A DNA stretch of 64,000 nucleotides from Isurus oxyrinchus (lineage: Eukaryota). The stretch spans positions 1,240,001 to 1,304,000 of the forward strand of contig JANJGN010000039.1 in the NCBI GenBank assembly GCA_026770705.1, read 5' to 3'. A program made the translations under genes and the position numbers. The notes under the pieces are model-generated. The model was not told the origin of the DNA and searched no databases. It was given only the letters and a program-made list of their open reading frames with translations. This document shows positions 2,916-57,161 of the stretch, piece after piece (position 1 is the first letter of the stretch; every line of letters starts with the position of its first letter).

Positions 2916-3823
2916 TCAATTGGTTTTCAGCTGTAATTTGACTAATTTTACGCACCATTCCATAAGGCACAGCATTCCTTTCTTCAGCTCCTCCCTAAAC
3001 TTAGACTGTGTCAGCACATAAATGAATGTATTTGTGCAGCAACTGAGGAGCCCAAGCATGAATCCCAATGACTCAAGTTCATTAGTGCCAGAATATGAAA
3101 TGATTGCTGTACGCAGGGTGATAAAATAAAATAAAACCGGAGCTGCCCAGAACAACATAAAGCTGCCGGTTATACTGAACAGTAAAATGATGGACTTTCT
3201 TCGGCTTTCAATCTCTGGATCATTGTGATGCTCTCCATTGCAGCAACCACGGAGACCCCTGCGAACTCTACTGGCGGCTAAAATACGTCTCACCGTCAAA
3301 ACATTTATCAACAAAATTAAAATGAAGGGAACAAATGGGGTCAAAGTAAGGGTAAACCAATCAAATGCAGCCCATTCAGCATAAATGAAAAATGTCTGTT
3401 TTAGGAAGCAACCGTGAGGTACATTGCCAACTATATATGCAGGTTCATACGCAAAATACCAGGGAATGTTTGTCAAACAACTCAAAACACTCACTACTGA
3501 TATGACAGCTGCGCCTGTTGTCTCTGTACAATATTTTTTTTTCAGCTCCTGACAACATATCGCCACAAAACGATCGAAGGTGAACGCCACTGTTAACCAG
3601 ACAGCGGCTGATGCGAATATATAAATCAACGTCTCAGTTAGATGGCACACCGTGCTCATTGTCAAGAATGAATCCGGAAAATAAACACCCAGCATCTCCT
3701 TCAGTATGACTTCAGTACAAATGAACAGGAAATCAGCCACTGCCATGGCCATCATATAGAGTGTAATGCACTTGGAAAGTCCACACTTGCTTCTGGAAAG
3801 GATCACAATCGCAACAACATTAG
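2916..3823 (-). CDS. GPR139/GPR142-like class A GPCR gene A, coding exon 2 (TM1 second half to C-terminus)
   Basis: Open frame with seven-TM pattern, AMAVAD (TM2), TFDRFVAIC (TM3) and SCCTNTFIY (TM7). Acceptor ...ctctctctatccctcacttacAG at 3825-3824, phase 1 (G|CT AAT). TGA at 2918-2916. Confidence 0.93.
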
Positions 3824-6800
3824 CTGTAAGTGAGGGATAGAGAGAGAAGGAGATAGACGTCACAGATGAACAAGGCAACTTCTCTTCCAATTACAGAAAA
3901 GGCTCATGCATTTTACCCAAACATGCAGGGCCTGCTTCCCGAGACGAGCATGTACTAAATGTGGATTGGACTTAGTACATGTGGACAGGGAATTGTTCAT
4001 TCCTCTTTTGATAGGAACATCGTCAATTTAAACTGGGGGTAACTACTTTTCAACAACGATCGAGCATTTCGAGGGAGAATCTGTTCTGGACAATTTTATG
4101 GTACAAGAACGGCTGGGAATGTTGAACTTTAAATATTAAATTGGGGTTGTAAAGAGATAATTCATGTGTGAGGATGAAATATAAATTGGGAAATGAAGCT
4201 GCAAAATGGGCTAAGTAGAGTTATACTCTGCAAGAGGTAGTGCTGCAATGTGTGCTGCGTGGTTTATAGATGTGATAAGTTTTTGGAAGGGTTACTGCGC
4301 AACAGGCCTGACAGCTCGAAGTTAAAATCCTGGCCGGCAGCATGGATATACTCTGAAACGATTGGAGTGTAAAGATGGACCTGTTAGAATGGTCACTGAG
4401 CTACAAAGAAACACTAGCATAGACAAGACCGTATAAAGGTTTACCCAGGAGTCCACACAGATGCCGTTTAATGACCATCAAAACAAGGTGACATATTTAT
4501 GCAGATTCGTAGTGAAACGTTGTGGTAACGGATGAGGGCTGATGAGTCAGATGTTTTAAGGCAGACTCAGTAATGAAAGATTAATATGCAGGCTGGGCAC
4601 TGTGAAGGTATAATCAGGTGAATGCAGCGCTAATTCATTGCAGACAAAGTGAAGCAATATTGCTTTGCCGATTGGGTATAGTTGATGCTGATCAAGGCGG
4701 CAGTTGAATGGCCGAATGGGAACGGTGACATTGCTATCAGGTTAAGTGTGCAATATTTATTGGCCATCGGGAAGGCAGAGTAGTTATTGCGCAGCGCAAA
4801 GCTTCTTTCTGGAATGACTAGTTTTAAAGTGTAATGAATGGATATCGCAAAATGCAGGTACAATAGGAATCACAGCGATGCAAGACACATTGTTGGTAAT
4901 GTGTGGTGAGCTAGCAATTGGAAGATGTGATTCCAATAGTTAAAATCAACTATCTATTCTGAGGAGACAGATGAACGTTCCCATTGATTGATCGGATGTT
5001 GATGGAGGCACTTAGTTTCCGAGAGGGTATAAGGGAGTCACTTGCGTTTCATTCACAGTAACCATGAGAAATGATTTGAAATGTGAAGCTGAACACCGAC
5101 CCTCGTAGGACACCAAGTGTAAAAGTTCCAGGTCGACATGGACTGTGATAGGCACATCGATTTGAGTAGATAGATTATTTTAGGTGTATTATATGATTAG
5201 AAGAGGAAAACAACAAAGTGTGTATTACCCGATGATAAAGAGCTAAATTCTAACATATGCATGGTTAAATTAACATACCTTGCAGCTATTTTTATTTCAG
5301 ATTGGTTTGCATCATAACATCCTTGAATTTTAGCATTATTTGGTAAAATATATATTTCTTTTTCAAAATGCAAGAACATTTTTGTTAATTAGCCATGGAA
5401 TTCACAGTTGTGTTATCATATTGAAGATTAAATGAAGCATTTCTACTTACTAGTGATTAAATCCAATAATCTTTATAAATCATACGAAATTGACGTGAGC
5501 CTCGGATAATCATGGCTGCAACACGGTCTCTTTTGTTCAACTAAACTACTAAAACTCCATTGAATTTTGAAGAGTTTCTCAGTGAATTGCAATGAACCAA
5601 TTTGTTCCTGCCATACATTTAATAACTTAATTAACACGGTTATTTATTTTTAATCTGCATTTCAAAGCAATTTAAATAACTCTAGTCTTAATTAATATGA
5701 AACGTAATTGGTTGGCTTCTGAAATTTTGTTTGTACTTCTGGTACTTATCGTGTCGGATAGGATTTGCTGGCTCTTGCAATGGTGCAGAATAGCTTTTCG
5801 GCTGAAATTTCCGTTCAGACTCAGGATGCCCAGATTAAGGAATGGAAATGCACATTCTCACAATCGAGGTATGAGTGAATAGAGAGTTTACTGAAGTACC
5901 AAGTGCTTTCAAGGATTTGCAACCTGAAGCAGACTGAATGTGTAGTTTTTGCAAACTTGTATTTCGGAAAACATCAATGCAATGGAGCAATGTCTATAAA
6001 AGGGGTGGTGAAATATCATTTTGGATCATAATTCCTGAAGATGTTGAGTAATTATTTGCATGAACTTTGAAAAAAGTAAGTTGTATTAGTCGGATAAAGT
6101 CAAACAGAATTTCCCATTCCTGTATCAGCTTGTAAGTTGCCAAGCTCTGACCACACAAAAATAATCTTTATAAGGTGACAAACACAGGCCAGTTGGCAGC
6201 TGCTGCCTCCCATTCACAACGTTCTAATTCGAATGTAAGCGTCAAACTTTGATTGACTTGATGGGAACTGTCGGAGATAATCACAAACAGCCTTGAAAAC
6301 GCTAGGTAATGTATATAAGTTGAAGGTGGATTTTCTTTTGATCACATAGGCTGCACTAGAAAGCGAGGGAAACATTAGAAAGTCAAAGCCGTTTTGACTT
6401 ATTTACAGCCCAAAAGAAACGTCAAAAATAAAGTTCATTAACCCTATACCTATTATTCCCTGAGCAAATCTAGTATTTATTTCACTACAATGTCATTAAT
6501 TTTCACTGAGAGTCCTAATTATCAATTCGCTTTATTGAGCTAAACAAAGATATTTAACGAAATTATCAGCACCTGAAGCTGTACTGGCCAGATCTGTAAA
6601 TAAGGAAACTATTAAAACAGGAAAAAGAGAGTAATGTACGTAATTATATAATGAAGCCGCCAATGTTTTAGCAAATTAATTTTCAAAACTACTATCCAAT
6701 ACATTATCAAGTTTCCAGAAATTTCCTCCAAATTAACCATTGAAATGCCCCACGAATGAACCACGCAATCCTCTACCGAATTTAATAGTGAACTATAGAA

Positions 6801-8329
6801 ACCATTATTCAGTATTTTATCTTTCAAATTAAATATACAAATATCAAGTATATTATCCATATAAGCCCCTGATAAATTAAGTGGAGAAGTGAACATGTAT
6901 ATACGCTGAGGAATTGCTCTCTGCAAAAGCAATCTGCTTCTTACCTGTTACTGATTTGCTGTTTGTGAAAAGAAACATAGAACAGGTTCAGTGCACTTTG
7001 ATTAATTTGCCTCTTGGTGTCGTTCCCGTAAATACCCCAGTCTGATGAACGACAGAGCGATGGAGATTCTGCCACTTTCCTAACTCCGTATCAGTTCAAG
7101 AGTCATGTTTGATTCGTAATGTAAGCACAAAATAACAATTTTCTGCAGCATCGTTTGTATGTAAAGCAGATTCTGAAGCTCCAATTCATTTCACGGACGT
7201 TGTGAATGCTCTGGCTCATGTAACACAGAGTGAGATCCACTGAACAGTGTTTTTTTGGTTATGACACATTGCTGCAGACTAGGTAGCAACAGTTACAGTA
7301 GAAATGCAGGAGAAGTTCCCCCGCTGCAGGTTAAAAATGCGAAAAGTGACTTAGGTACCTAAAGGAACATTACATTAAGTAGGCATCAGACTGGATTTTA
7401 CATTTTGCGGAAACGTGAGATTGGCGAAATGCAAAATGAGTGGTCAGCTCCATCTTGTCCCACTCACCCTCCCTTAGACGACCTCTACCTCCTCAACCCA
7501 TCCAATTCCGCGGAAGAGGCAATGAGTGATGCAAAATGGTGTCCAAATCCAGTTGGCAGTGAATGCCTGGACCTCATGCGGCAGAGTGTAATGCTATGAA
7601 CAGAGAGTCGGTCTGGCTACAAGCTCAAGACAACCTACTCTCAGAATTTTTTTCGAAAAATATTTTTCATTGAAAGCCCAGGCAAGAAACAAAAAAGTGA
7701 GATAAAAACCATGAAGATGCTGCCATCTTCCCCAGCACAATCTGCTGTTTTATTCGATGATGCTACTGGAGGCAGGAGTTCCATTCCGACAATTTGCCAT
7801 CTCACAGTAGCTGCACTAAACAAATTACTTTTCTCGCCTGAGCCACAGCAAATGCAATGCACCAAACAGGAGAACATACGATTGGTTCACTCACAAGCTC
7901 AATACCCTGTTAATTAGTAACCTGAGAAAGGTGGGCCCGCCCGTTCTCCATCTGTAAATGGGGAGAATTAAGAACGCAAAATCATTTTACCCCCTGCATG
8001 TAATTTATCTACGTTGGAACTTTGACTATTTTGAGGCGGGTGGGTGATGCGGTGGAGGGGGTTGTGGTGGCCGGGTGGGTGCGAGTGGTGATAGGAAGTG
8101 TGAGGGTGAGGGTTTGGCGTGCGATTTGGTGATGAAAATTACAGCCAATCGTTTTGGCTGCAGATGTAGGCATTCAGACGTGAAATGATGACACATGTCC
8201 TCAGTTGATAAGCGGATTATTGCAAAGGATTTGAATTGAAACATGCACGTTATAGTTCACCTTAGTTTACTATCACAAAGTAAACACACAGGGACGTCCT
8301 TTCATTATCAAATGACAAAAAAAAAATCC

Positions 8330-10330
8330 ATAGATTCGGCATTATGCAGCACTTTCTTTTCGTGGGAATATTGGCAAGATTAGTATTTTTTTCCGATATC
8401 ACATATTATTCTTCTTGCTGTCCATGTGATGCGGGTGCACAAACAGTGTTTCGAGCGATGTGTTTACAGGAATTTGATTCACTGGCAGTCAGGGAATGCT
8501 GATGTATCTCCAAGTAAGGATATGGTGTGACTTGGAAATTATTTTGCAATAATAGTATTCCCAGACAACCTCAGCTCTTGCCGTTCCAGGCCTCCGATGT
8601 GAAGTGCTCGAACGGATGCCTTTTGTTCACATCTGTCATATATCAGGAGCAGCAGCAATCATACCTAACAACACGGCTTTGACCTGGTGAATTACAAGAC
8701 AGGACACCTTGCATGCAAAGCAGCGGATGCAGCATGCAATTGACAGGTCTAATTAATCCCACCAGGAAATAACGTTAACTTAGCTCTGAAGTTCTGCTCA
8801 TGTCATCTTCAATGTTGTTGGAAAATTCAATGACTCAATGGTGGCGAACAACACCAATAAACACATGGGCAATGATTGTGGAGCACAGCATATCAGTGCA
8901 TATACATGGTTGAAGAACTTGCCACCATATTCAGACTGACGTGACTGGTGGATGCATCATCCCGGCCCCCTTCTGTGGATGAGAGCAACACAGAAGCCAG
9001 TTTTGGGCCAATGTGGTTCACAACACTTGAGGTGAAGGAATGACTGAAGGAACTGCATGATGAAGAGACTATGGGTGCTGTCGGATACCAGCAATTGTAC
9101 GGTAGATTAGTGCTCCTGAATAAACCTTCCTAGAGAACCTGGTATAGTACAGCTAAAACACTGGCATGCACGTGAAAATGTGAGCAGTTGCATAGCTGGG
9201 CCTATCCACAAAAACAAAACAGATCAAATCCAAACAATCAAATTACCACCAAATGTGCCTAATGATCATCATGAACAAAGTGATGGAATGCGTCATGGGC
9301 ATTGCTTTCAATCGCCACGTACTCGGAAGTAACCTGCTCACTGGTGACCATTTTTTGCTTCATACGAGCTCCAGCTCTCGGTTCGGCCTTAAACCAAACA
9401 TGGCCAAAAGTGCTGAATTCATGAGGTGATTGGAGAGCGGCTCCTGTTTACATGAAGACAACATTTCACATAATGTTTTGTCAAGGAGATATATCAGGAT
9501 TGGGGTCAATAAAAATAATGGGGGACCTACACATTGATTGCAGCCATACGTATCACAAAAGAAGGTTTATATTTTAAAAACAAAAAACTGCGGATGTTGG
9601 AAATACAAAACAAAAACATAATTAGCTGGAAAAACTCAGCGCATCTGTCAGCATCGGCGGAGAAGAGAAGAGTTGACGTTTCGAGATTTATATTTTGTTT
9701 TGTTTTGAAGGTGAATCAACTCATTCCGATGACATCACTGCACGAGATCCTATGGGCAATATCCTGAGCCAAACCAACCTGAGCTGCTTCATTAATTGAC
9801 TTCTCTGCATCATATTCCCAGAGGAAGGTTTGCGGTGGGGGACGGGGGTTGGGGTAGTGTCCGCTGACGATTGTTCAAAGTTCAACAACATTCGCAACTT
9901 AAAAGATACTGAAGGAATCTTGCCCGTGTGCATCACGTCCTGGGCAATATCCAGGCTTCTGATGAAAACTGACAAGTCATGTTAGCACCACACAACTGAC
10001 AGGCATATACCACCTACAAAAACAGAGTATCCAACCAATTCTCCTAGACATTTAATGGTATTTCTATCGTTTAATTCCCGATTTTTACATCGATGGAAAA
10101 ACCATCGTCTCGAAACTGTGAAAGGAAGGGCAGGTCGGAAGCTCACAATTCTGTCACGAGGACATCACCCCCTAAATATCCAAAACCTTCCCTCCATCTA
10201 CAATGCACAATTCAGGAATGTAGTGGAAAACACAGCAGTTTTCTGCATGAGTTCCGCTTCAATAACATTCAACAATATTGACCTAATCCAGGGCAAAGCC
10301 GGCTGCTTGATTGGCAACCAGTCCTTAGCT
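8330..10330 (+). mobile_element. Decayed CR1/L2-group LINE (RT region) in intron of gene A
   Basis: Degenerate matches to the family seen more clearly at 30860-31276 and 62150-63620 (e.g. tccatctacaatgcacaattcaggaatgtagtgga, gctgacgattg). Paralogous at about 38300-40160 and, inverted, about 51370-53140. Confidence 0.6.
9576..9686 (-). mobile_element. 111-bp 5'-truncated PLE tail insertion with 10-bp flanking direct repeat
   Basis: Near reverse complement of 941-1050. Flanked by tttatatttt at 9566-9575 and 9687-9696. Absent from copy B (about 39520). Confidence 0.85.
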
Positions 10331-10651
10331 TTAATGATTCAAGCTGTTTATATTTACCGAATAGTTATTCTTACTGATTTTAAAATCATATCAATCATCA
10401 ACCAATAACTTAGCAAAATAACTTCATCAAAAATGGCTTTTTAGGCTTCGCACAATTGCAATCTTGCTTTCCTAAATACCATTTTGCCACGCCCCTCCGT
10501 TCACTGTGCTCCATTTTCCAGAGCATTAAGAGCACATGGTACTTATGTGAAACCTCATGGCATTATGTAAAACATGGGCAATAAATATTCGTTTATGTTG
10601 ACCACCTCCCCTTCCCCTAAGATCATGACTGAATGAGCATCCATGGACGAA

Positions 10652-10960
10652 TCATAGAATCACAGAATCATAGTGCGGAAGAGTCTCTTTGGCCCAATGA
10701 GTCTTCACCGACAAGTGAGAAACACCTGAAATACATACGTAATAACATTGACAAGCACTTGGACCATAGCCATGAATGTTACGACAAGCCAAGTGCTTAT
10801 ACAGGCACTTGTTAAAGGATGTGAGGCAACCCGCCTCCAACATCCTCCCAGGCAGCGCATTCCAGACAGTCATCTCTCCCTGGGTAAAAATGCTTTTTCT
10901 CAAATTCCTCCTAAACCTCTTGCCCCTCACCTTTAACTTATGCACTCTTGTGGGGCATAA
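10652..10960 (-). mobile_element. CR1 LINE 3' end (short truncated copy)
   Basis: Reads HKLKVRGKRFRRNLRKSIFTQGEMTVWNALPGRMLEAGCLTSFNKCL (CR1 ORF2 C-terminus), ending in an ATTCTATG/ATTCTGTG-type tail. Paralog at 40483-40792. Confidence 0.85.
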
Positions 10961-11529
10961 AACACAGTTTTAGGGAGTGGCCAGAAACAAAAACTATTGT
11001 ACGCAGAGGACGTCAATGTCTATGACCAAGACAGGATCGGTAGCACCACTAATGGCCAATCAGGCCGACTCCGACTGATAACTGCTAGACTGGCTCTTTT
11101 GCAGGTGATCAGGGAACCAACAAGGTGCAAAGCCCGAAATGAACTAGCCTCGCCAACCTTCAAGCAGCATATGCACCTGCCCATTACAGGATTGATAGGA
11201 TAGAACACCTCACGTTCCTTGTGCAGACTTAGTCGGCCTTCACATTGGAATGTTCTTCCATGGTATAGTGTGACACTACCGTTGTGCGATACGGGTAGAT
11301 TTCAAGCAGATCAGCAACACCAATGTGAAAATTCGCCAGACACTTTGGGCCATCAGCTGGAGCAGGGATGTGCACAACCATAATTTGGAATTCCAAGCCC
11401 AACCTATCTCCAACTCCTCAATTTCCATGCGGAATTATTATGGTGATGGTTGTGGTGCTGGACAAGAATTCCAATTTCTCCTTTTGGTGTTCGCTGTTGT
11501 CACTGTGCGACAGAGAATTAACCAGAGAA

Positions 11530-12000
11530 TTCCTTGGATTACTGGGAATTAGCTGCGATTTTCCAATGTGGAGACATTGACGAGGCTGACTCTCTGCTCT
11601 CTGGAGCTTTGCCAAATGAGAATTGATCTCACTGAAACATACACCATTCTTACAGTGTTCGATGTTATCTATGATGGAGGGATGTTTCGCTGGCGCGTCT
11701 GTCTAATATCATGAAAAACACTTTCAAAATAACAGATGTGCATTTACTGCAGATATTCCTTCACTCAGAGAGCAGCGAATGTTTGAAATTATCTCCCGCA
11801 ACAGCGGCAGAGGCTCAGTCATTGGGTATGTTGAAGGCAGCACGATGAACCAATTTCTAAATATTAACTGCGCCCAGAGATATGAGATAGTACAAGGGAA
11901 TGACATGAAGGCATAATTACAGCCATAATATAGTTCAATAGTGGAGCAAGCGCGAGCGGCCACCTTTCTAACTTCTGCTCCCATTGCCTATGAATCTATG
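11530..12000 (+). mobile_element. Decayed CR1 LINE 3' region
   Basis: ttcactcagagagcagcgaatgtttgaaattatctccc...gaggctcagtcattgg and a 3' tail gctcccattgcctatgaatctatg. Paralog at about 41380-41855. Confidence 0.65.
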
Positions 12001-12213
12001 TCCTTTTGTCACTTAGCAATGCGAGATTCACAAAGAGACAGGGGAGTCCGAAAATCGTTTAAACCAACTCAATTCAATTCTCCCTGTAAATCAGTTAGAT
12101 TTGGAAGTTTGATCTAGACCAGCAGGTAGTGGAGGGCGAGAAACTAAATGGGGCAGAATAATAAGAACCAGAAACTATTCGGGGTTCGTAGGTGTTTCAA
12201 AATCGGACCACTT

Positions 12214-12620
12214 ATGGCTCAGTCAGTTGAAATCTCCGTGCTGAGATAGATGTTTAACGATTTACTTCCGGCACCAGAAATTCAGAACAAAGTTCTCAGC
12301 TCATGGTCCAATCTCTTAGTGAAATAATTCTGCACTATCGCAAGTAGAACCTTTAAGAACAGATTCACGATTGACGAGGAAAATGTAGAAGATTCAATTC
12401 CACTTATTCGAGGAACAACATTGTTATAGCCAGTTATGTCCTGACCGATATTTCTACCTCTGCTAAAATCACCAAATAAAAAATCCGGTCATTGTCAACA
12501 TATTATCAATGGAAGCTTCTCGAGCACAAATCGACGATCACGCTTACTTTAAGTAAATCCATCAATGTGGTCATGGACAAAGGCTGTTCAAATTCATGTC
12601 TATCAATATACAAGTGAGTT
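12214..12620 (+). mobile_element. Decayed DeuSINE (SacSINE1-like) SINE
   Basis: tRNA-like head (tggctcagtc) and Deu-domain-like core (gtcctgaccgatatttctacctc...aaatccggtcattgtcaacat...ggaagctt...gcacaaat). Recognised from memory of the consensus. Paralog at about 42083-42490. Confidence 0.55.
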
Positions 12621-13125
12621 AGACATCGGAATGTCTTAAGCGCAGACAACACTGTGTTTCAGCCAAGCTTACAGATATCATCATTTCACACTGATTTGCA
12701 AAACTATCGCTATGAAAAATTAGGGGATTTGAAAGGGAATTTGTTGCTTGCGATATTGGAAAACAGGTGAAAACCGTGAGCAAACACTTTCAATAAGTGC
12801 AACCGAATTCTGCAGAATGCGAATTTGCCCCTGCAATGATTTCCATACCTCCAATTACCTCCAATTTTAAACACGGTCTGAACTTGGTTATGACAATTAT
12901 TGCAGAACCCCACTCAAATTCAAGAAATTCCCCAAAGAATGAAGACGGTCAACACTGTAGAAAGCTGCGTGACACATAAAGCAACCTTAAGAAGTCATGT
13001 AACGTGACACCTAACCTTTGATAACTCTCCAACAGAAAACGAACTATTTCACATTACCAGAAACGCCTTTTGAGAACAAAGTCAATATCCAGTTATACGT
13101 CCACTGATTGTATTTAGGCTCTTAC

Positions 13126-13195
13126 CTGGTACACCAACAGCTGCGAGAATAGGGTAGTAAATGGCCTTTATCTTGTGAAGTATCAGGTCTCCCAT
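13126..13195 (-). CDS. GPCR gene A, coding exon 1 (MGDLILHKIKAIYYPILAAVGVP)
   Basis: ATG at 13195-13193, 70 nt, ends CCA G|gtaagag (donor 13125-13124), phase 1. The join gives IYYPILAAVGVPANVVAIVILS (TM1 with conserved Asn); total 978 nt = 325 aa + stop. Confidence 0.9.
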
Positions 13196-13859
13196 CTTTA
13201 TGAGAATCTGTCTTTTCTCCTGAGATGGTTAAACAGGATGGAATGGAACGATGTGAGCTGGAAACTACAAACCCCCGTCACCTTTGAATTAATTTCAGAA
13301 ACATAAAATAAATAAAGTAAAATCACTGTCGATACTCAGAAGGAGATACCACATTAATTAAACCCAAAATATCAGGGTAAAACTGGCAGCAAAGCATTTG
13401 TAATATGGAAGCGAGATAAGCTGCTATATTTTACAGACATGAAGTCCTGTACATAAACTTCCAAACCCACTTCCTCTACTCCCTAGAAAGACAAGAGTAA
13501 CATAGACTTGGGAACGCCACCATCTAGTAGCTGCTCTTCAAACCACTCACCGCCCTGATTTGGAAAGATATCGCCGTTTCTACACTGCTTCTGCGTCAAT
13601 GTACTGGACCTCCCCGTTATAACACAGACTACAGCAGCTCAAAAATGCATCTCACTACCATCTTTTCAAGGGCAGTTAGGGAAGGCAATAAATGCTGGCC
13701 TCGCCAGCGTCGCCCACATTCAATGAATGGATAGAATAAGAAATATTATCATTTTTAGCCTGAGAGTATGTAAATAAACATACATTAGACAACGATAACT
13801 TCGAGAATGGGTTTGTAAGTGTCCCATATCTGACGAAGTGAAAAAACGCTATTCGCTGT

Positions 13860-14030
13860 GAGAAGCGCTAATTGAAGCAGAAACACTGAGTCTTTTGGAG
13901 AACATGAAATGATCCGTTCAGAGAACCTCTTATTTATACAACAGATAAATCCTCATTAGCTCATTCATGTTCCCTGAAGAAATAAATCAGTTTCAGTCAT
14001 TGAACAAACAGGTTATGTCAGTCACTCCCT
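13860..14030 (-). promoter_or_regulatory. Candidate core promoter of GPCR gene A (TATAAATA at 13938-13931)
   Basis: Block is nearly identical to 43738-43905, visibly more conserved than its flanks. It carries TATAAATA on the gene strand about 740 bp upstream of the ATG. Confidence 0.5.
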
Positions 14031-14626
14031 TGTGAAAGCAACCACTACAAAGTGAAACATCAAATTTTGGACTGATGTCTGTGCTCAAACCAATTGAAGG
14101 GGCTGCATGATAGCGATCAATGGATAAATATTATCGGAGATGGTCAGAGCGGGAAATGATTAAGCCACTAGGGGTTGTTGCGGGATTACTCGTCACTAAT
14201 TTACTCAAAATGAATCTTAGCAACACAATGGTTCTGAACCTCCCTAAGTAGGGGGCACATTTCTGATGTTCCCCACTGTTTTGTGTTTCTGGATCCATTC
14301 TATGTTCCAACAAGGCACGTGTGTGATCCTTGTCTTTGACATTCAAGCTTCCAGAGGGAAGACATACGCTGCCCAGATTGTTCCTGGATTACACTGGCAC
14401 TGATACCTCCGTCGGCGACTGGGCCTACATTCTATGGCGTTGCCCAGAAATTTGCACCATTCCGCCTGCAAATTAAAAATGCAACCAGAGGACATGGAGG
14501 GTTCGTGCTGGTGATTACGTGAGGTGTAACACGATCTGTATGGAGAAGGCATTTGTTTTCTCAACCAGAAAATTTCAAAATAATTCTTTCCAGACGTTTC
14601 CAAACCTATAAATGGTCAATAACCAT

Positions 14627-14664
14627 CCCCCCCCCACCCCCCCCCCCCCCCCCCCCCGCCCCCC
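14627..14664. repeat. Poly-C tract
   Basis: About 36 C with two interruptions; absent at the paralogous position (about 44505). Confidence 0.9.
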
Positions 14665-15169
14665 GACAGCAAATCAGTCTATTCCACCCACTCACATATT
14701 ACGTCCAGAGAGATGTTGGGGCTGATTGAAAAACAATGTTTTGAATAAAATAATAGGTTAATTCGAGTACAAAGCTGGGGGAATATTCCAAGCTAAACAT
14801 TTAACTCCTGACCCTCAGATGTCTTCTGCAAACAATCATTGGCCGATGGAATCACTCATTTTAATGAGGCAGAATCGCCATCACCTCCGGCTGTTGGTTT
14901 GCGCTGCATTTCATACAACACCAAAATCACAAGAATTAAGGGCAGGGGTAGCTCATTCGGCCTCTTGAGTCTCTTCTGCAACTCGAAAAGAAAATGGTTT
15001 ACCTGATCGTGGCCTCAGCTCCATTTTCCTGCCTGTACTTCTCCAACCTGCGTCGCACACCCGCCCCTCCACACCCTCCACAAAACACACACATACGTCC
15101 TCATGACCTCAATACCGTTTATTGGTCAATGAACTATCCAAATCAGTCTGGAATATGAAGCCGCGCTGA

Positions 15170-16230: not shown

Positions 16231-16269
16231 ATAAAGCTGCACAGGCTAATGGAAAAAATATAAATATAA

Positions 16270-29030: not shown

Positions 29031-29052
29031 CTGGAAGTCCATCACTATGTGC

Positions 29053-40792: not shown

Positions 40793-42997
40793 ACGAAGTT
40801 TTGGTGAGTGGCAAGAAACAAAAACTATTGTATGCAGGTGCTGTCATCGTCTATGACCAAGACAGGTTCGGTAGCACCACTAACGGCCGATCAGGCCGAG
40901 TCAGACATATAACCGCTGGATTGGGTCTTTGGAAGGTGATCAGGGAACCAACAAGGTGCAAAGACCGAAATGAACACGCCTCACCAAACGTCAAGCAACA
41001 TATGCACCTGCCCATTACAGGAATGATAGGATCGGCCACCGCATGCTCCTTGTGCAGACGTAGTCGGCCTTCACATTGGAAAGTTCCTCCATCGTATAAT
41101 GTGACACCACCTTTGTGCGATATGGGGTAGTTTTCAATCTGATCAGCAACATAAAAGTGGGCATTCATTAGGCAATTTGTGCCATATGCTAGACCAGGGA
41201 TGTGCACAACCATAATTTGCAATTCCAAACCCAATCTATCTCCAACTCCTCAATTTTCATGTGGCATTATTATGGTGATGGTTGTGGTGCAGGACAGGCA
41301 TTCCAAATTCTCCTTTTGGCGTGAGATTTTGCGCTGTTGTTATAGCTGTGCTACAATGATTGTTAACCAGATAAGTCCTTGAATTACTGGGAGTTAGCTG
41401 GGATATTCCAATGTGGTGACATTGACGAGACTGAACCTATGCTTTCGGAGCTTTGCCAAATGAGAAATGATCTCACTGAATCATAGACCGTTCTTACAGG
41501 GTTCGATGTTATAGATGTTGGAGGGATGTGCCCCTGGCTGATGTGTCTAATATCATGAGAATCAGTATCAGAATAACAGGTGTGCATTTAGGGCCGATAT
41601 GAGGGGGAATTTCTTCACTCAGAGAGCAGTGAATGTTTGAAATTATCTCTCCCAACAGCGGCAGAGGCTCAGTCATTGGGAATGTTGAAGGCAGAGCGAT
41701 GAACCATTTTCTAAATGTTAAATGCGTCCAGAGATATGCGATAGTGCAAGGAAATGAATTGAATGCATGTTTACAGCCATGATATAATTGAGTAGTTGAA
41801 CAAGCTCAAGTGGCCAAATTGTTAACTTGTGCTCCCACTGCCTCTGCCTCTATGCTCTTTTGTCAGAACCTGCATGTCACTTAGCAATGCGAGATTCAAA
41901 AAGAGACAGGGGAGTCCGAAAATGCTTTAATCCAACTAATTTCAATCCTCAATACAAATCAATTGTACTTGCAAGTTTGATTTACATCAGCAGGTAGTGG
42001 AGGGCGAGAAATTGAATGGAGCAGAATATGCAGAACCAAATAACTACTTGCGGTGTGTAGGTGTTTCAAAATCGGGCCACTTATGGCTCAGTCAGTTGAA
42101 ATCTCCGTGCTGAGATAGATGTTTAACGATTTGCTTCCGGCGCCAGGACTTCAGAACAAAGTTCTCGGCTAATGTTCCAATGTCTTAGTAAATTAATTCT
42201 GCACTTCCACAAGCAGAACCTTTAAGAAAAGATGTCAAATTGATTCACGAGGAAAACGTAAAAAGATTCAATTCCACTTTTTCCAGGAGCAACATTGTTG
42301 TAGTCCCCTGTGTCCTGAACGAAATTTATACCTCAGCTAAAATCCACAAAATAATACAATCCGGTCATTGTTAACATTATGTCTATGGAAGCTTAAAGAG
42401 CACAAATCACGCTTACTTTAAGTAATTCCATCAACGTGGTCGTGAACAAAGGCTGTTGAAAATCATTTGTATCAATATACAAGTGAGTAAGACTTCGGAA
42501 TGTCCTAATCACACACAGCAATGTGATTCAGCCAAGTTTCCAGATTTCGTAACTTCACACTGATTTGTAAAAATATCGCTGTTAAAAAGTACGTGATTTG
42601 ACAGGGATTCTGTTGCTTGCGATATTGGAAAACAGGGGAAAACCGTGAGCAAACACTTTCAAATAGTTCAAGCTGAATTCTGCAGAATGCGATTTTGCCC
42701 TTGCATTGATTTTCATAGACACGTCCTATCTCCAATTTTAAAGACGGTCTGCACTTGGTCATGACAATTATTGCAGAGCGCACACAAATTCAAGAAATTC
42801 CCCAAAGAATAAATACGGTGTCAACACTCTAGAACGATGCATGAAAGATGAAGCAATAGTAAGACATCAGTTAACGTGACACCTAAACATTGATAACTCT
42901 CCAACAGAAAAGGAACGGTTTCACGTTACCAGCAACACCATTTGAGAAGAAAGTCAATATTCATTTATACGTCCACTGATTGTGTTTAGGCTCTTAC

Positions 42998-43067
42998 CAG
43001 GTACACCAACAGCTGCGAGAATCGGGTAGTAAATGGCTTCTATCTTGAGAAGTATCAGTTCTGCCAT
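42998..43067 (-). CDS. GPCR gene B, coding exon 1 (MAELILLKIEAIYYPILAAVGVP)
   Basis: ATG at 43067-43065, 70 nt, ends CCT G|gtaagag. The join with exon 2 is 975 nt = 324 aa + stop. Confidence 0.9.
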
Positions 43068-43737
43068 TTTTATGAGAAGCTGTCTTTCCTCCTGAGATGG
43101 GTAAAGAAGGATGGAATGAAACGATGTGAGCTGAAACTTACAAACATACCCTTCTCCTTTGAATTAATATCAGAAACTTAAAATAAACAATGCAAAATCA
43201 CTGTCGAGACTCGGAAGGAGATACCACATTAATTAACCCCAGAATATAAGGGGAAAACTCTCACCAAAGCATTCGTAACAGGGAAGAGAGAAAACCTGCT
43301 ACATTTTACAGACATGAAGCCCTGTACATAAACATCCAAACCCACGTCCGCTTCCACCTAGAAAGACAAAGGTAACATAGACATGAGAAAGCCACCACCA
43401 GTAGCTCCTCTCCAAACCCCTCACCGTCCGGATTTGGAAATATATCGCCGTTCCTTCACTGCCTCTGTGTCAAAGCACTGGACCTCCCCCTTATAACACA
43501 GACTACAGCAGCTCAAAAACGCATCTCACTACCATCTTTTCAAGGACAAATAGGGATGGACAATAAATGCTGGCCTCGCCAGCTTCGCCCACATTCAATG
43601 AATGGATAGAATAAGAGAAATTCCTATTGTTAGCCTGAGTTTGTGAAAATAAACGTACATTAGACAACGAGAACTTCGACAATTGGTTTGTAAATGTCCC
43701 GTATCTGACAAATTGCAACAAAGGCTATTCGCTGTGA

Positions 43738-43905
43738 GAAGCGCTAATTGAAGCAGAATCACTGAGTCTTTCGGAGAACATGAAATGATCCGTTCAGAGA
43801 AACTCTTATTTATACAACAGTTAAATCCCCATTAGCTCATTCATGTTCCCTGAAGAAATAAATCAATTTCAGTCATTGAACAAACAGGTTACGTCAGTCT
43901 CTCTC
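43738..43905 (-). promoter_or_regulatory. Candidate core promoter of GPCR gene B (TATAAATA at 43814-43807)
   Basis: Nearly identical to 13860-14030, with the TATA element conserved. Confidence 0.5.
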
Positions 43906-45019
43906 CTTGTGAAAGCAACCACTTCAAAGTGAAACGTCCAATATTGGACTGATGTCTGTGGTCAAACCAGTGGAAGGGGCTGCATGTTTTGATCAATGGG
44001 TAAATATTATCGGAGGTGGTCAGGGCAGGAAAAGATTAAACCACAAGTCGCTGTTGCGGGGAAAATCATCACTAATTTACATCAAAATGAAGCTTAGCAA
44101 CTCAATGTTCCTGATCCTCCAGACCTAATGGGGAAATTTCAGATGTTCCCCATTGTTTTGAGTTTCTGGTCTCATTCTATGTTCCAACAAGGCACTGTGT
44201 GATCCTTGTCATTGACTTTCAAGCTCCCAGATGGAAGACATACGCTGCACTGATCGTTCCATGAATTACGCTGGCAGTGACAACTCCATCGGTTACTAGG
44301 CCTACAAACCATGGCGTTGCATTGAAATTTGCGCCCTTCCACCTGGAAGTTATTAATACACGCGGAGGACGTGGAGGGTTTGTCTTGGTTAATTACGTGA
44401 TGTGTAACACAAGCTGTATGGAGAAGGAGTTTCTTTTCTCAACCAGAATACTTCAAAATAAAGTGTTCAAGATGATTCCGATCCCATAAACGCTCAATAT
44501 CCATTCCTGCAGCAGCCAATCATCCTACAGCACCCACTCACATACTCCATTCAGAGAGATGTTTGGGCTGATTGAAAAACGATTTTTTCTATAAAATTGT
44601 ATGATAACTAGAGTACAATGCTGGGAGAATATTCCACGTTGAACATTGAACCCTTGGCCCTCAAATGTCTTCTGCCGACTGTCATTGTCCTATTGAGTCA
44701 CTCATTATAATGAACCCGAATTGTCGTCGCCTCCAGCTGTTGGTTTGGGCTGTATTTCATACATGGCCAACATCACAAGAATTAAGGGCAGGAGTAGGGC
44801 ATTCGCCCTCTTGAGTCTGTGCTGCAGCTCTGAAAGAAAATGCTTTTACCTGATCGTGGCCTCAGCTCCATTTTCCTGCCTGCACTCCTCCAACCAGTGT
44901 CACACACCCTACCCCTCCATTGCACCCTGAAAACACACACATACATCCTCATGACCCCAATATCCATTATTCGTCAATAAGCTATCCAAATCACTCTTGA
45001 ATATGAGGCCTCCCTGAAA

Positions 45020-46395
45020 AGTTGAAAAAGAGGATCTGTGTCATTTGTGCTTTTGATGATGACCTGATAAACAGAGTGATGCAAAGTGGTTCGTCAGTGT
45101 GGACCCCTTTCAAGTGACCTGCGGCGCTAAGTAAGACACTATTCATGGCTTCAGCTCTGTTTGTCATATACTTGGAAGCCATTCTCCACTATGCACTCAA
45201 GGAGCTTGACATAGGTTTGCATTTTCATTTCAGGACAACCGCCAACGTTTGCAAAGAGCCAAGAGCAAAACCTTGTTCATAGGTGACTGAACAGCGACTG
45301 AGTGAAGTCTTATTCGTGGACCACTGTGCTTTCATAGGGCAGAATACGGAGACATCCAGCTGCGTGCTGACTCAGAACACTTTCGATTAACAGTATATCT
45401 GCAGATAGAGAAGCTGTATCAAATCACCGCTGGTCACTTGATCCAAGAAGCCACAGCTGCTCTGAACAAAACACCCCTCTGTTCTGTGAGGAAGTTTGCT
45501 AACTCGGCAGCATGCTCTCCAGGAGAACTAACAATGAGCAAATAAAAAATCACCTGACATAAATGAGTTCGGCATTGGGCAGGCTGCACTCACTGACTTC
45601 TGGAAGAAAAACATGGAGCTTCCCTCAGATGGAAGATCAAAGTCTATCAAACGGTATTTTTTTTATTGTGTTTTTTTATTTGCAACGCCATTGGACTCAT
45701 GTGGAGAATGCCAACATTCCACAGGCCTCAATAGGTTAACACGGGAAGCTGCACGACAGGTTGTCTCAAATCTAAAAGCCAAACCCAGAGATTGGAAGCT
45801 GCGTCACAGTGAATGGGGTCATAATGCTCCCTTGCTAACAGCCCTGTGGCTCACCTGCACCATATGAACCCTCCGCCCGGCACACTGGAATCCTGATGCT
45901 AAACTACACGGTGCACAGGCCTCCTTCAGGCGACAGACACTGTGCGGATGGAGGATTGTCGACAGGTGCAAGGCTGTGATATCTGGATACCTTTGATACC
46001 AGCTAAAATTCTGCATAAACGCGGCAGATGTATGGCGGTCGCCGGACACATGTTTCAGGAAAGGCGTACCTACCGGCAGCTGCATCTGCCACTGAGCATT
46101 CCTTGACCAAAGGGCGAACAAATATAAAGTTATCAGTGCACGCTCAATGTCGCCGTAAAGCACGGAGGCATTAACACCAGTGAGCAGGTTGAGAATGCTG
46201 CCGATCTCTCGGCCTGGCACCATCTGGTCCAGCAAGGCTAAAACCAGTTTGCAGCTCAGCGACTCGACAGAGAATTGGAAGGGCAGAGGCACAGGAAGCA
46301 GAAGAAACCCAAAATGGGCCAAAAGCGAGCCCTACGGCGGATGGACATATAGGTCCAGAATTGAGCTTCTCAGTCATCTGAATTCTCCATGAGCC
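45020..46395 (+). mobile_element. Decayed RTE-clade LINE including 3' end
   Basis: Paralog of 15170-16230, continuing to ENAADLSAWHHLVQQG and YRSRIELLSHL (cf. WE..A.DR..WR and SRIGL.SH of RTE C-termini). Confidence 0.65.
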
Positions 46396-46789
46396 TGAAG
46401 GAGCTGGATTACAAGGAACGGCCACTGACAACCTTCTCAAAGGCAACTTGGGAAGAGCAGTATCTTCTGGCCCATTTATACACAACCCCACCTCATGAAA
46501 ATATGTATTTTAAAATATAATTGTGAACATAAAAAAAAAACCTTTGGCAACCCCAAATTGAAAATTCATTCAGTGATTTCTACATTTGTGGAGAACAGGT
46601 TCAAGTGTGTTAAAGACAAGGAAAGGCGGGAAAAGTTAATTTATCCCGCCTGAACGGACATTGTAAACAAAACATGGTAATCGATTGTCCAATTTAGACT
46701 TGGTATAACTTCACAAATGATATCACCTTGATTTTTTTTTTGAGTGCACACCTGTCGAAGCGCCGGGGGAATCAATCATCAAGATAGTT

Positions 46790-46995
46790 CAATAGACAAA
46801 CTGATAGCCAGATAGACAGAGAGATAAGTGGACAGAGATTGACATGTGGAAAGAGTGATAGGAAGAGAGAGATAACATGCGAGAGAGAGAGAACAAGGCA
46901 GTGTGTGCTAGAAAGAGAGTGAGCGTGTGAAAGAGCAAGATAGATACATACATTGATAGATAAATAGATAGATAAAAAGCAATATTATTAGATAA
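46790..46995. repeat. GA/GATA-rich degenerate microsatellite
   Basis: gatagacagagagataag...gagagagagaga...gatagataaatagatagata. Confidence 0.8.
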
Positions 46996-49521
46996 GAATA
47001 TACTTCTGTAGCTATGAACATGATGGGGTGTAAGACATTTGCTTCATGCAACAAATAGCCACTGAAGGATAGTAGGTAATTTCAACTGTGAGGCAGAAAG
47101 AGTTTTTTGTGATAATTTGAAAAAAAGAACAGTAACGAAATGAATTTCCACATGCGAGTATTGTGCTCGCATAGAACTGGAAATCTCTCCTGACAAATCC
47201 TCTTTAATATGGGATCAGAGATAACGGCCTAGAATTCGGTCCCTGACATTCGCTCCAGGTAGCAAATGATACATTTGAGATGCAATAGTTTCCTCGCGAC
47301 AGGAACAAAAACGTCACCAAGTTACCTGGAAGAGATAATAAAGAGGAAGAAACAGAAGTGTTTCACCAGACGTGGAGCCAAGGGAACAGTTTGCCTTGAA
47401 ATGTCCTAAAACCCTCCGTTCTTTGCGACATTTAACATATAAACTGATAATTGGCCTGGGCAACACATTCAGTCACAAAAATGTATCTAAATCCCATTAT
47501 CAAAAACTGCTCGGACAATCACAAACATAAAGTGAACAATGTTTGCGCACAATCCACAGAAAGTTCTAAGTGAGGGAGCTGTGTTCAATAAACGCATTCA
47601 AGTGAAAGTGAATATATGGATGAAAATGAGACTTAGCTCCACACTCAGTATTTGTTTGTAACAAGGCAGTCGGAGGTGCAGGTCGTTTGTTCCTATGCGT
47701 CACAAGGATCAACAGTGGGCCTTAGAAAACGGGAACAGCCTGAGAGCCACGGCTGGGAGCTTCAGTTTCTGGAAGGAGTTCGATGTGCAAGCTGGAGGTC
47801 GAGCCTGTGAGAGATCGAAACTGGGGGAAGGCAATGAACACTGCTTTCAAGACCTTGAGGCAGATGCACTGTTGGAACAGGAGGACATGGTTTAGGGACG
47901 AGGGGAAACTGAAGTAATGGTGGATTGAAAGAGCAAGTGATTTCCTCTTTCAAAAGGAGATTAAGCTGCACAGGGTAATGGAAACATATAAATACGAATT
48001 TAGAGTAGAAGTAGAGAAACCGGCTCCTCGAGCCAGCCCCGCCATTCAATAACATTATGGTTCATATGATTGTGGACGCAATTCCACATTCCCTCCACCT
48101 CCAATAACATTTGATACCCTTGGGACGCAAGAGAATATCTGTCTCTGCCTGAATAGATATCCAATCAGCCTCCCTACACAGCACTTGCGGGATGGGAGTT
48201 CCAAAGCCATTGAACACTATGACTGAAAAAAATCGCTTCCATCTCCCTTTCAGCGGGAGACCCACAACTTGAAAACTGTTCTCCCTTTGCTCCAAACTCC
48301 ACGACAAGGGAAACTTTCTCTTTGCATCAAATATGGACGATGCCTCAGGAGATCTAACCTATTTCAAAGCACCTCTCATTTTCCAGACTCCAATCAACAA
48401 ATGTTGACAAAGTTTCTGAGTAAGTTAACACCCAAACCACCAAAACCCTCCACCAACCCAGCATCACAAGTATCTGCAGACTGAATGTTATATCAACTGA
48501 TTCTAATTAGTTGATAACCTTTCTTAAATTTGGAGACCAAAACTGGGCACAGTACCTTAGATGTGATATCGGCAACGTTCTACACAATTGCAGTAAGACA
48601 TCACTACTGCAATAATCAATTTCCTTTGCAATTATCAAAGTACAGAATTCTATTTGCCTTGCTGTACCTGCATATTAACAGAAATCTATGAATTGCAATA
48701 ACACAACTGATGTGACTTTGAACTGTGAGCCTGTGTGGCTCTTGTCCAAAATGAGAGAGAAAAACTTCTGAATAAGTAGTTTCCTATAAATATATACATA
48801 GTATTTTGACAACATATGGATTAATGAAGTTGACTGAAAAACACATTGTCCTTCATTGAATTTTGCAGGAACATATTGCTAAGCCATTGAGCTAATAGTG
48901 AGACACCATCATTGAATATTGTTTCTATTTAATCCGTTCTAAAAAATAATGGCAATTGAGCATCCATTACAGCAGGTTTCGAATTCGAAAGTGATAAACA
49001 CATATCGGGAATGATGAAACTCATCTGACCTGGAAGATCCGCACCATGTCTTCAAATCTCAATATTTCACGGTGTCTTCTTTTTCACTGGTGATGGTGCC
49101 GTCCCTGGAAATTTCGGAAGTGAGAGGCAGAATTTCATTTGTAGTTGATAGAACGGCGAGACATGTATTCTACAAACACGTTGAATTTATTTAATACGTT
49201 CACAGATGGATGTGTTTTCGACTATTTAGTGAATTTAGGAATATGGTCACAGTACAGGAAGATCGATTTGAGATAGAAGATCACTTGATTGGCGGAGGAG
49301 ACTCGAAAGGCCAATGCCTTTCTCCAGCTCATGTTTCATATGTTCTCCCAATGTACATGCCATACTGGTTCTTATCCGTCGTGAAGATTGCTCGTTTGGA
49401 ATGTTCTATCAAGCTTTTAGCCACCAGTGTATTGCATCCCGTTGATCGTAGAGACGAGCAGCTATGTGCCCCGATTTTGCAGACGGTCGTTTTTATTGCT
49501 GGTGGTTTGGGTGCCAGATGA

Positions 49522-50737: not shown

Positions 50738-53430
50738 TATACGATGGAGAGAAGCCCCAATGTGAAGGCGGAATTCATCTGTACAAGGACGTGCAGTGGT
50801 CTATCCTATCAATTCTTAAATGGACAGCTGCACCTGTGGTGGTTAAGTTTGTGGAGCGAATTCACTTAGAGGTTTGCACCTGATTGGTTCCCTGACCACC
50901 TGCCAAAGACCTAATCTAGCATTTATCTTTATGACTCTGCCAGCTCGGACATTATTGATGCTATTGATTCGCTCTTGCTCACAGACTTCAAGGTCTCCAA
51001 TGGAAAGCATTTTTTTCTACTCTCTCCCTAAAGCTTCGGCCATTGATGATCATTGATTCATCTGCTGAGGTGAACGTGAGCTGGTCAGCAGAAGGGGACA
51101 TTCATTGCCCATGTGTTACGTGATGTCATGAGATGTCACTTAAGTGCCACGTGTACTGAAGGATATGAAAAATGGTGCACGCTGGAAGTGTTGCAAAATG
51201 GTATTTAGGAAAGCATTAATAGAATTGAGCATACCGACTAATTCGGTGGATATATTACGTTTTGGATAAGATAATTTCACTCAGATGTTTGCTCATGATT
51301 CGTATGAACTTTCAAAACAGGAAGATGAATTATTCTGTTAAGGGTAAACAGCTTGAATCATTAAATTTATGGAATGATTGCAAATCAAGCAATCAGCTTT
51401 GTCCTGGGTAAAGTCAATATCCTTGAATTCTACTGGAGCATACATTATCTAGACAGGTGTAGCGTACCTCATCACATTCCTGATTTGTGCATTTTAGATG
51501 GAGGAAAGGTTTTGGAGAGTCGGGGGGTGTGTTGCTCACCACAACATTTTCAGATTCTGACCTGCCCTTCGAGTCACAGATTCCAGTCAATGGTTTGTCC
51601 AAGGATGTTGAAAACGGGGGCTTAAGCGATGGTAATGCCAGTAAATGTCAAGGCTAATTTGTTGGATGTTCATTTGGTGCAGATGGACATTTCTTGTCTA
51701 TTTTGCGGGGCGAAAATTACTGATCATTCTTCAGCACAAGTCTGGCTGTTGCCCAGGACTTGATGCACATGGGCACAGATTTCATCAGCATCTGTTCAGT
51801 CGTGAATGGTGCGGAACTTTTAACAATTCTCAGCGGATATAACCTCCTCCCACTTTCCCACAGCCTCCCCACCACACCAGCATCCTACTGTGTTTCAAAT
51901 GGAGAGAGCATAATTGATTCAGCAGCTAAAGATGGGTGGGCTCAGGACACTGCCCTCAGTCTGTCGTCCAGTTATGTCATGGGGTTGAGATGATGCACCT
52001 GCAAAAGAAAATAAAAATGAAAAAATAAATTATTTTTGCTTTGTATGAGTTCACTCAGTAGGGAAGTTTCCCCTTATTCTTATTGACCACAATTCTTATA
52101 CCCCTCCTTGATACCACATTGTGATAACTGATGCATTGATATAGTTCACATCCACTCTCTCCTCATCTTATAAGTACGGCACCTGTGTCCATGTTTGGAG
52201 GCAGGCCGAACCAGGAGTTCAGCTCGCACGAAGCAAAAAGTGAGCGTCAGTGAACAGTTTGCTGCCGAGTATTTGGCGATTGAAAGCATTTTCTATGAGA
52301 CTTTTCATCACATTGATCTTGATTAAATGTAGGCTGATGGGGCTGTACTTAGATTGGTTGGATTTGTCGTGATTATTTGTGGATAGGCATACCTGTGAAA
52401 ATTCTCAAAGTTTCTCATAGTTGCCAGAGGTTTAGATGCACCATACCAGCATCGATAGAAAGGCTTATTCAGGAGCAGTGATCTCCCGTACTATTGGCAT
52501 TATCTAAATGGACCCATAACCTCTTCATCATCCAGTTCCTTCAGTCATTCCTGAAATCCGAGTGCTGAGAATCACATTGTATGAAGACTGGCATCTGTGA
52601 TGCTTGTCATCCATAGGTGGAGGCCGGATGGTTCATGCACCCGTCACTTCAGGGTGAATGTGGCTGCAAATTCTTCTGCCATGTATATGCACTGGTGTGC
52701 TGCGCTCCACATTCATTGCTGATGGGGATATTGCTGGAGAGCAAGTGAGGTGCAGAATTTTACATCACCATTAAAGGTGATTGTGACAGGACTTCAGAGC
52801 TGAGCTATCGTTATTTGGTAGGGGGACCAATGAGCCCTGTCTTTCTCATGCTGAATACGCTTTTTTGCTTGCAAGTAGCCCCGGGCTTGAAATTCACCAC
52901 GTTAAGCCATGTTGTTAGCTTTAATTGCTGCTGTATTGGACATGGGGCAGGTGTCAGCAACGTTCCTTCGTTTGTGCATTTGACCTCAAAATCGTGGAAG
53001 GGAAACAGCAGAAGAGGCATGGGAACACTCTTAATTACAAAATCCTTTCTGAGTCACGCATCAGCTGACTTGCAGATACATCAACGTTCATTTACTGTCA
53101 CTGGATCAAAAACCTGGAAATCAATCGCTCCCAGCAATTAATGCTAAGAGTCATGGGTTTTACGAGTCTGGCCAATTTGTAGTGAATTAAGCTGTAGAGG
53201 ATATTAATTTAAACATCGGTGTATTAGGAGTTAGATCTTTATCGTCAGGTAATTGGCAATTCGTAATTTTACTTTTCTGAACACAGATTAGTCTACAGAC
53301 TCAAATCTTTTTGCCCAACATGGTCAACCTTTATCGCAATTTTATGCACTTGGTACCCAGAAAAAAAAATCAATTTTAAGCTTCACCTTCAAATCACAGA
53401 TGTTGTCATTGAGACACAAGCGATTGTGTC

Positions 53431-53916
53431 CTAAAACATACATTTTTCATTTCTGCTGAGTGGGCCGCACTTGAATTTATTACCCTTACCTTGACCCCAT
53501 GTGTTCCATTCATTCTAATCTTGTTGCTAAATGTTTTGACAGCTAGGCGTATTTTGGCAGCCAGTAAAGTTCGCAGGGGTCTCCATAGTTGCAGTAATGG
53601 AGAACATCACAAGGACTCTGAAATAAAAAGCCGAAGAAAGTCCATTGTTTTACTCTTCAGTATTACCGGCAGCTATATATTGCTCTGGACAACACCTGTT
53701 ATATATATTATCTCTCTGCATGTAACAATCACTTCAAATTCTGAGGCAAATGAGCTTAAGTCAGTTGGATTCATGCTAGGGGACCTCAGTTGCTGCACAA
53801 ATGCATTCATTTATGTGCTGACACAGGCTAGGTTTAGGGAGGAGCTGAAGAGCGGAATGCAGTACCTTGTGAAACTGAGCGCAAAACTATGCAAATTACA
53901 GTGGATAACCCATTGA
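53431..53916 (+). pseudogene. 5'-truncated GPR139-like GPCR copy C (ECL2 to C-terminus only)
   Basis: Reads LKHTFFISAEWAALEFITLTLTPCVPFILILLLNVLTARRILAASKVRRGL...LSCCTNAFIYVLTQARFREELK...*. Directly upstream is intron-homologous sequence; the splice acceptor and TM1-TM4 are missing. Confidence 0.88.
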
Positions 53917-57158: not shown

Positions 57159-57161
57159 GGG

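Follow-up and report, generated by a model that had tools for sequence, protein, structure and literature searches.

The chemoreceptor families of vertebrates (OR, TAAR, V1R/ORA, T2R and V2R) follow a general pattern, in which G protein-coupled receptors (GPCRs) with a short N-terminus are encoded in tandem clusters that also hold pseudogenes, and combine a variable ligand pocket with a conserved cytoplasmic face. In sharks a relative paucity of GPCRs has been described (PMC8455134), and the catshark repertoire reported in PMC11979771 comprises 2 OR and 6 OR-like, 3 ORA, 3 TAAR and 32 V2R genes. Another set of described systems surrounds GPR139 and GPR142, orphan class A receptors of vertebrates that Trp and Phe activate, and includes the protostome W/Y/Famide receptors (MIP/sex-peptide, FMRFamide type 1, myosuppressin and proctolin receptors), a group sister to GPR139/142 (PMC8557429). 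For Trp/Phe, GPR139 needs F109, H187, W241 and N271 (PMC5430874). Here we describe a cluster of related receptor genes in 64,000 nucleotides (nt) of the shark Isurus oxyrinchus (contig JANJGN010000039.1, positions 1,240,001 to 1,304,000, hereafter the window and numbered from its first letter), and the family to which these genes belong. This family is, apparently, a so far undescribed, repertoire-like GPCR expansion in cartilaginous fishes, real and mislabelled as GPR139.

The window contains five receptor loci, A to E (Table 1). Six-frame translation and tblastn recovered A to D, which a preliminary description had reported as four related seven-transmembrane (7TM) loci between positions 2916 and 53916; all of them are real, and locus E is a fifth remnant that its author had overlooked. 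A and B are intact, as proposed, and each is a class A GPCR gene with two coding exons; the spliced proteins have 325 and 324 amino acids (aa) and the introns 9302 and 8933 nt, respectively. Their first coding exon was located with a position-specific scoring matrix (PSSM), a profile of the first 23 residues from 48 relatives, for which the next best score was 2.6, and in both genes a phase-1 GT donor follows it. The phase-1 acceptor lies directly before the Asn of transmembrane helix 1 (TM1) and is common to A, B and D, as had been noticed; E has the same acceptor. The DRF motif, the NTxxY motif and the very short N-terminus are likewise as first described. C is truncated and still in frame, while D is decayed, and its best matches among 502 stored proteins fall in a subfamily different from that of A, B and C (expect value, E, 1e-39). 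Since D and E match subfamilies other than A/B/C, two intact and three broken loci from three subfamilies (A/B/C, D and E) stand in one cluster.

The family is not a matter of a few copies. A protein search with B gave 1786 matches at E of 0.001 or less, and the best 120 of these all come from sharks and rays, in 14 species, the closest being from the basking shark (75%) and the white shark (73%). By hand count, these best 120 include at least 47 clusters from Heptranchias perlo and at least 41 from Heterodontus francisci, spread over many scaffolds with several per scaffold, in agreement with the large birth-and-death family that had been suggested. When representatives clustered at 50% identity were searched with the family profile, 136 matched at E of 1e-30 or less. 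The further suggestion, that the expansion was specific to this lineage, has to be abandoned, as the family spans sharks, rays and a chimaera. In our tree, deep subfamilies are common to sharks and rays, and two Callorhinchus (chimaera) proteins nest within the family, on branches without strong support; the family is therefore probably older than the shark-chimaera split. The early-branching family rows P0167, P0173, P0174, P0189 and P0190 carry no species, nor does a related group, W, and a range strictly within cartilaginous fishes is not proven. The name GPR139 is attached to 114 of the best 120 relatives and other automatic names to 6, and the label "probable GPR139" spans at least four different lineages.

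The family belongs to class A (rhodopsin-like) of GPCRs. Exon 2 of A and B matches Pfam 7tm_1 at 72 and 80 bits (E 7e-20 and 2e-22) against a curated cut-off of 30.5. The AlphaFold model of B exon 2 is a helical 7TM bundle (mean predicted local distance difference test score 81.9, predicted template modelling score 0.75), which aligns with NTSR1 over 268 residues (Z 25.2, root mean square deviation 2.8). In fold searches, the best 50 matches listed are near-tied class A receptors of the peptide/chemokine type, and GPR139 is not among them. The activation motifs are kept, with DR at 3.49-3.50, C3.25, P5.50, W6.48, N7.49 and Y7.53. The class A Pro at 6.50 is mostly absent (Thr in 41 of 47), as is the Trp at 4.50; A, B and C have a Pro one position after 6.50 and a shortened third extracellular loop.

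The shark family resembles OR, TAAR, V1R/ORA, T2R and V2R receptors in each element of their pattern, namely tandem clusters, pseudogenes, short N-terminus, and variable pocket with conserved cytoplasmic face. However, membership in any of them was rejected: Pfam gives only 7tm_1, and none of their domains, in the three of three GPCR frames scanned, and the nearest relatives are orphan peptide-type receptors. The shark family differs from those families in having no sequence kinship with them and in the intron that interrupts its coding region within TM1. Judged by its sequences, it works like a chemoreceptor family, and is neither a member of OR, TAAR, V1R, T2R or V2R nor a GPR139 orthologue.

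The loci had been called GPR139-like, which stands for the wider group and is not supported for close kinship. When the family profile is compared with solved structures, human GPR139 ranks first, at 72.9 bits against 51.9 for the next, and it also ranks first for the proteins P0248, P0228, P0251 and P0214. The same profile, however, scores these four proteins at 142, 194, 128 and 228 bits, against 73 for GPR139. The 228 bits belong to clade Y, an amphibian gene (20 rows from 20 species, P0214 included) that NCBI labels "probable GPR139", and the 194 bits to clade X, a gene of jawed vertebrates that includes a separate catshark gene and has mostly one copy per species among the 120 of 145 matches listed; a third clade, Z, is a teleost gene, and the fourth lineage is group W. 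GPR139 orthology was rejected on these scores. In a tree of 67 selected rows, rooted on three long invertebrate-like rows, the 41 rows of the family form one group (93/91) with clade Y as its sister (97/99), and groupings of the family with X or with W were rejected by approximately unbiased tests chosen after the tree had been viewed (p 0.013 and 0.020, respectively). True GPR139 and GPR142 are absent from this tree and are positioned by scores only. Tree and scores together place the family in the wider GPR139/142-related group, as sister to the single-copy amphibian gene, with the GPR139 name as an automatic label.

With GPR139 and GPR142 the family shares the short N-terminus, a similar TM1/TM7 pattern, the absence of Pro at 7.50 and two coding exons; GPR139 is a two-exon gene (PMC7318219). 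GPR139 differs by an Asp where the family has C3.25, and the family by DRF for DRY, Thr at 6.50 and 7.50, multiple copies, a variable pocket and a similarity that is remote. At the positions of F109, H187, W241 and N271, mapped by motif offsets on profile and sequence alignments, A has Y, T, W and F and B has Y, V, W and I. The Trp at 6.48 is therefore kept and Tyr replaces Phe at 3.33, while the His and the Asn are lost, and this does not make up a Trp/Phe site of the GPR139 type. Since A and B are without two of the four residues, amino-acid sensing, which had been raised as a possibility for them, is not transferable from GPR139, and such Trp/Phe sensing by A and B looks unlikely. Clade Y keeps three of the four (F3.33, W6.48 and N7.39), and it differs from the shark family in being single-copy, with a core pocket identity of 0.99. 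The clade Y pocket is almost invariant, with 2 distinct core strings in 20 species. This clade would be a good target for work toward the ancestral ligand of the family.

Other described receptors lie around the family. PMC6504862 names orphans GPR210A/B of coelacanth, gar and teleosts near GPR139/142, in a study that covers no cartilaginous fish; these orphans may be clades X and Z, which flank the family in the tree. Clades X and Z differ from the family in having mostly one entry per species. P0272 and P0370, both of clade X, are annotated as TMEM183A isoforms, in shark and frog, which suggests that clade X adjoins TMEM183A and that this neighbour would serve as a synteny marker. Among the Atlas neighbours of one family protein are FMRFamide-receptor-like clusters, with an Srw domain in 17-74% of cluster members. 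The srw receptors of nematodes descend from the W/Y/Famide group in particular. PMC3963977, which does not mention GPR139, has them arise from rhodopsin peptide-type receptors. The shark expansion differs from these systems in being independent. We found no description of it in the open-licence literature, though subscription papers and unexamined supplements could hold one; the supplements of the whale-shark study (PMC8455134) give 0 matches for GPR139 and 1 for GPR142.

The receptor family had also been described as diversifying, and the ligand pocket indeed varies among paralogues. A list of 30 pocket positions and one of 18 core positions were fixed before any column values were viewed. 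At the 18 core positions, mean column identity was 0.36 among 47 Heptranchias rows and 0.31 among 41 Heterodontus rows, against 0.61 and 0.59 at the other outer positions and 0.83 and 0.79 in the inner half (permutation P ≤ 0.0002). The orthologue sets X (47 of 120 rows) and Y (20 of 20) behaved in the opposite way, with core values of 0.82 and 0.99. With the 30-position list, the direction was the same and the effect weaker (P 0.04 and 0.014). The contrast persists at equal overall divergence: between pairs that are 55-70% identical, core pocket identity was 0.28 (702 pairs) and 0.27 (423 pairs) in the paralogues, against 0.83 (502 pairs), 0.95 (22 pairs) and 0.71 (148 pairs) in the single-copy orthologues. 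Shifting the register by 1-3 positions weakened it; at zero shift the paralogues were at their lowest, and X and Y at their highest. Almost every paralogue has a core string of its own (44 distinct strings in 47 Heptranchias rows and 41 in 41 Heterodontus rows). Genes A and B of the window have different residues at 8 of the 18 core positions, at 18 of the 63 other outer ones and at 7 of the 84 inner ones, and the contrast of core with inner positions is significant (Fisher p 6e-4). On these alignments, the paralogues combine a diversified ligand pocket with a conserved cytoplasmic G-protein face, which is the pattern of a many-ligand repertoire.

Self-comparison of the window shows how such copies arise. 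The A and B units are direct tandem duplicates, ~82% identical over about 15.8 kb, and the C unit is an inverted, 5′-deleted copy at ~71%. The most conserved 200-column window, among 274 in the duplication, is non-coding; it precedes the start codon by ~700-900 nt and falls inside a block in which 296 of 321 columns are identical between the A and B units (median across the duplication, 0.84). Also in this block, ~660 nt ahead of the functional exon 1, is a second and decayed copy, which matches it at 45 of 76 ungapped positions (expected count 6e-5) and whose terminal GT is in register with the true donor; an acceptor-like site precedes the ATG. We infer that the upstream block could represent a promoter together with a non-coding first exon that a duplicate of exon 1 gave rise to. 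The block contains a promoter motif of the odorant-receptor type (TAATG and an AGGGAA half site); in one duplicated pair it is indistinguishable from chance, and it was not used as evidence.

Purifying selection acts on A and B overall. Between them, the synonymous distance (dS) is 0.175, on a par with the non-coding distance of 0.18-0.20, and the nonsynonymous distance (dN) is 0.102, which gives a dN/dS of 0.58 (bootstrap 95% interval 0.38-0.90). By half, dN is 0.144 in the outer part (against a dS of 0.20) and 0.070 in the inner part, and for the 3′ half dN/dS is 0.86. At the end of the intron (3781-4034, minus strand, in A and the matching stretch above 34065, minus strand, in B), the final ~200 nt are 93-94% identical between A and B. 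Both copies carry two TGCATG words there, 80-105 nt upstream of the acceptor, where 0.067 are expected per 200 nt; this intron end could be a splicing element of the RBFOX type or a product of gene conversion.

The window holds part of a tandem cluster, and the family goes back to a single orphan gene within the wider GPR139/142-related group rather than to GPR139 itself. Its genes are copied as wholes, with putative promoter, short exon 1, ~9 kb intron and exon 2, in segmental duplications of ~15 kb, and the copies retain the cytoplasmic G-protein face, alter their pocket-lining residues and often decay. Each intact copy may have its own range of small-molecule or peptide ligands, and many ligands would feed one signalling output, for chemical surveillance. 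The repertoire would most likely detect external cues in sensory or surface epithelia, like OR, V1R, TAAR and T2R. That the family is a chemical-detection repertoire, most likely one for external chemosensation, is the explanation we favour with moderate confidence, because the pattern is typical of such families and because the known shark repertoires are small. A family whose members differ in their pockets and number at least 41-47 per genome, as in two species here, is at odds with the picture of small repertoires in sharks. If the family is sensory, vertebrate chemoreceptor families would have arisen independently once more, and what sharks smell with would become directly testable in existing RNA-seq.

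A bolder form of this proposal, which we put forward only tentatively, is that cartilaginous fishes own a large olfactory or taste family, which an automatic label has hidden and whose recruitment out of GPR139-related peptide receptors dates back over 400 million years. Such a family would rival or exceed the V2R repertoire, would explain why some 8 OR, 3 ORA and 3 TAAR suffice, and would parallel the recruitment of srw in nematodes.

Several points weigh against a chemosensory repertoire. Among the 50 top olfactory- or brain-specific catshark genes given in PMC11979771 there is no GPCR, which is weak evidence either way. The pocket positions were numbered by motif anchors and offsets, not from model coordinates. 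The paralogue sets consist of the matches nearest to B, and some gene models are fused or partial. The orthologue control works in two of three sets, as set Z (53 rows) has no pocket excess (0.86 versus 0.87). Between A and B, the difference between core pocket and other outer positions is not significant (p 0.25). Finally, dN/dS never exceeds 1 in the pairwise counts made within the window, so that relaxation of the pocket is not separable from positive selection.

Mammalian MRGPR and formyl-peptide receptors are models for a different function, in which the family would act in leukocytes or skin as immune or barrier-defence sensors of microbial or parasite peptides. We consider this rather unlikely, even though the genomic and pocket signature would be the same as for chemosensation. 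An ancestry among peptide receptors (PMC8557429) agrees with it, and cartilaginous fishes are without MAS1-related receptors according to PMC8455134, which may leave such a niche free. No immune genes, however, were found among the open reading frames (ORFs) of at least 90 aa in the 64-kb window, read by eye. An immune role would make the family an unrecognised innate sensor repertoire.

More doubtful still is genomic drift, that is, a repeat-driven segmental duplication of a weakly constrained orphan, whose pocket variation would merely reflect a lost ligand constraint. Three of the five loci are dead, the duplicated units are flanked by or rich in retroelement pieces, and the dN/dS values between A and B, overall and in the 3′ half, are compatible with such a process, none being above 1. 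Against drift stand deep subfamilies common to sharks and rays with chimaera members nested among them, an inner face conserved at 0.79-0.83 and an upstream block conserved above background, and relaxation alone does not predict a pocket that varies more than the other outer positions. Least probable is that the genes are co-orthologues of GPR139 and serve brain or gut as sensors of aromatic amino acids or of related endogenous peptides. In its favour, no solved structure in the PDB matches better than GPR139, W6.48 and an aromatic residue at 3.33 are kept, and 30 of 47 Heptranchias paralogues have His at the H187 equivalent. Against it, B scores 46 bits with GPR139, level with the PrRP receptor at 47, whereas zebrafish and human GPR139 are 70% identical (PMC7318219); H187 is replaced by T in A and V in B, and N271 by F and I, respectively; and one ligand does not suit dozens of different pockets.

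Table 1. Receptor loci, upstream blocks and duplication units in the 64-kb window (HMM, hidden Markov model; ECL2, second extracellular loop)
Feature	Position	Strand	Content and evidence
Gene A, coding exon 2, intact	2916..3823	-	Second half of TM1 to stop; ORF, tblastn, 7tm_1, phase-1 AG acceptor
Gene A, coding exon 1	13126..13195	-	Met + 22 aa + one base of split codon; PSSM 53.5, then GT donor
Gene A, conserved upstream block	13780..14100	-	TATAAA 13938, initiator-like site 13912, decayed exon-1 copy 13853-13784
Gene B, coding exon 2, intact	33160..34064	-	ORF, tblastn, 7tm_1, phase-1 AG acceptor, AlphaFold model
Gene B, coding exon 1	42998..43067	-	PSSM 59.0, then GT donor
Gene B, conserved upstream block	43655..43980	-	TATAAA 43814, initiator-like site 43788, decayed exon-1 copy 43728-43659
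Locus C, truncated pseudogene, 3′ half of exon 2	53413..53916	+	ECL2 to stop, open frame; within inverted partial duplicate ~50734-57888
Locus D, pseudogene, decayed exon 2 of second subfamily	26608..27441	-	HMM 55 and 71 bits; in-frame stops, frame changes
Locus E, third subfamily, 5′ third of an exon 2 (TM1-TM3) in heavy decay	47042..47325	-	CAG acceptor, phase 1; HMM E 1.3e-4
Duplication unit A	1060..16886		Self-blastn, pairs with unit B at ~82% identity; non-coding distance 0.18-0.20
Duplication unit B	31292..48611		Self-blastn; 45884-47958 (holds E) without counterpart in unit A

The three broken loci differ in what they retain. An exon 1 was found for none of them, and for D no upstream PSSM score rose above background. 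Locus C also matches 7tm_1, and the inverted duplicate that holds it contains no exon 1, acceptor, TM1-4 or promoter; without promoter, exon 1 and TM1-4, C is therefore unable to encode a receptor despite its open frame. Because its dN/dS against A and B is 0.45-0.54 (164 codons compared), C probably remained functional through most of its past. It has more in common with proteins of the white and basking sharks (80% to P0002 over 159 columns) than with A or B, and for this reason may be the orthologue of those proteins, recently lost in this lineage. Locus E was matched by 159 of the 502 stored proteins, against 1 of 502 for the reversed-sequence control. A sixth candidate, at 44624-44941 on the plus strand, gave a weak tblastn match and was rejected, since it was matched by 1 of 502 proteins, as many as the reversed control, and the HMM did not pick it up.

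The Rfam scan of the 64-kb window gave 0 matches, and the tandem repeats in it are trivial only. A reverse-transcriptase (RT) frame lies at 49522-50880 on the plus strand (RVT_1, E 2.5e-6), and another copy of the element, with a GIY-YIG domain, at the window start (128-505, plus strand); we take these pieces to be a Penelope-like retroelement. The C unit starts at 50734, adjoining the RT fragment, where the match of the RT copy to the window-start copy ends.

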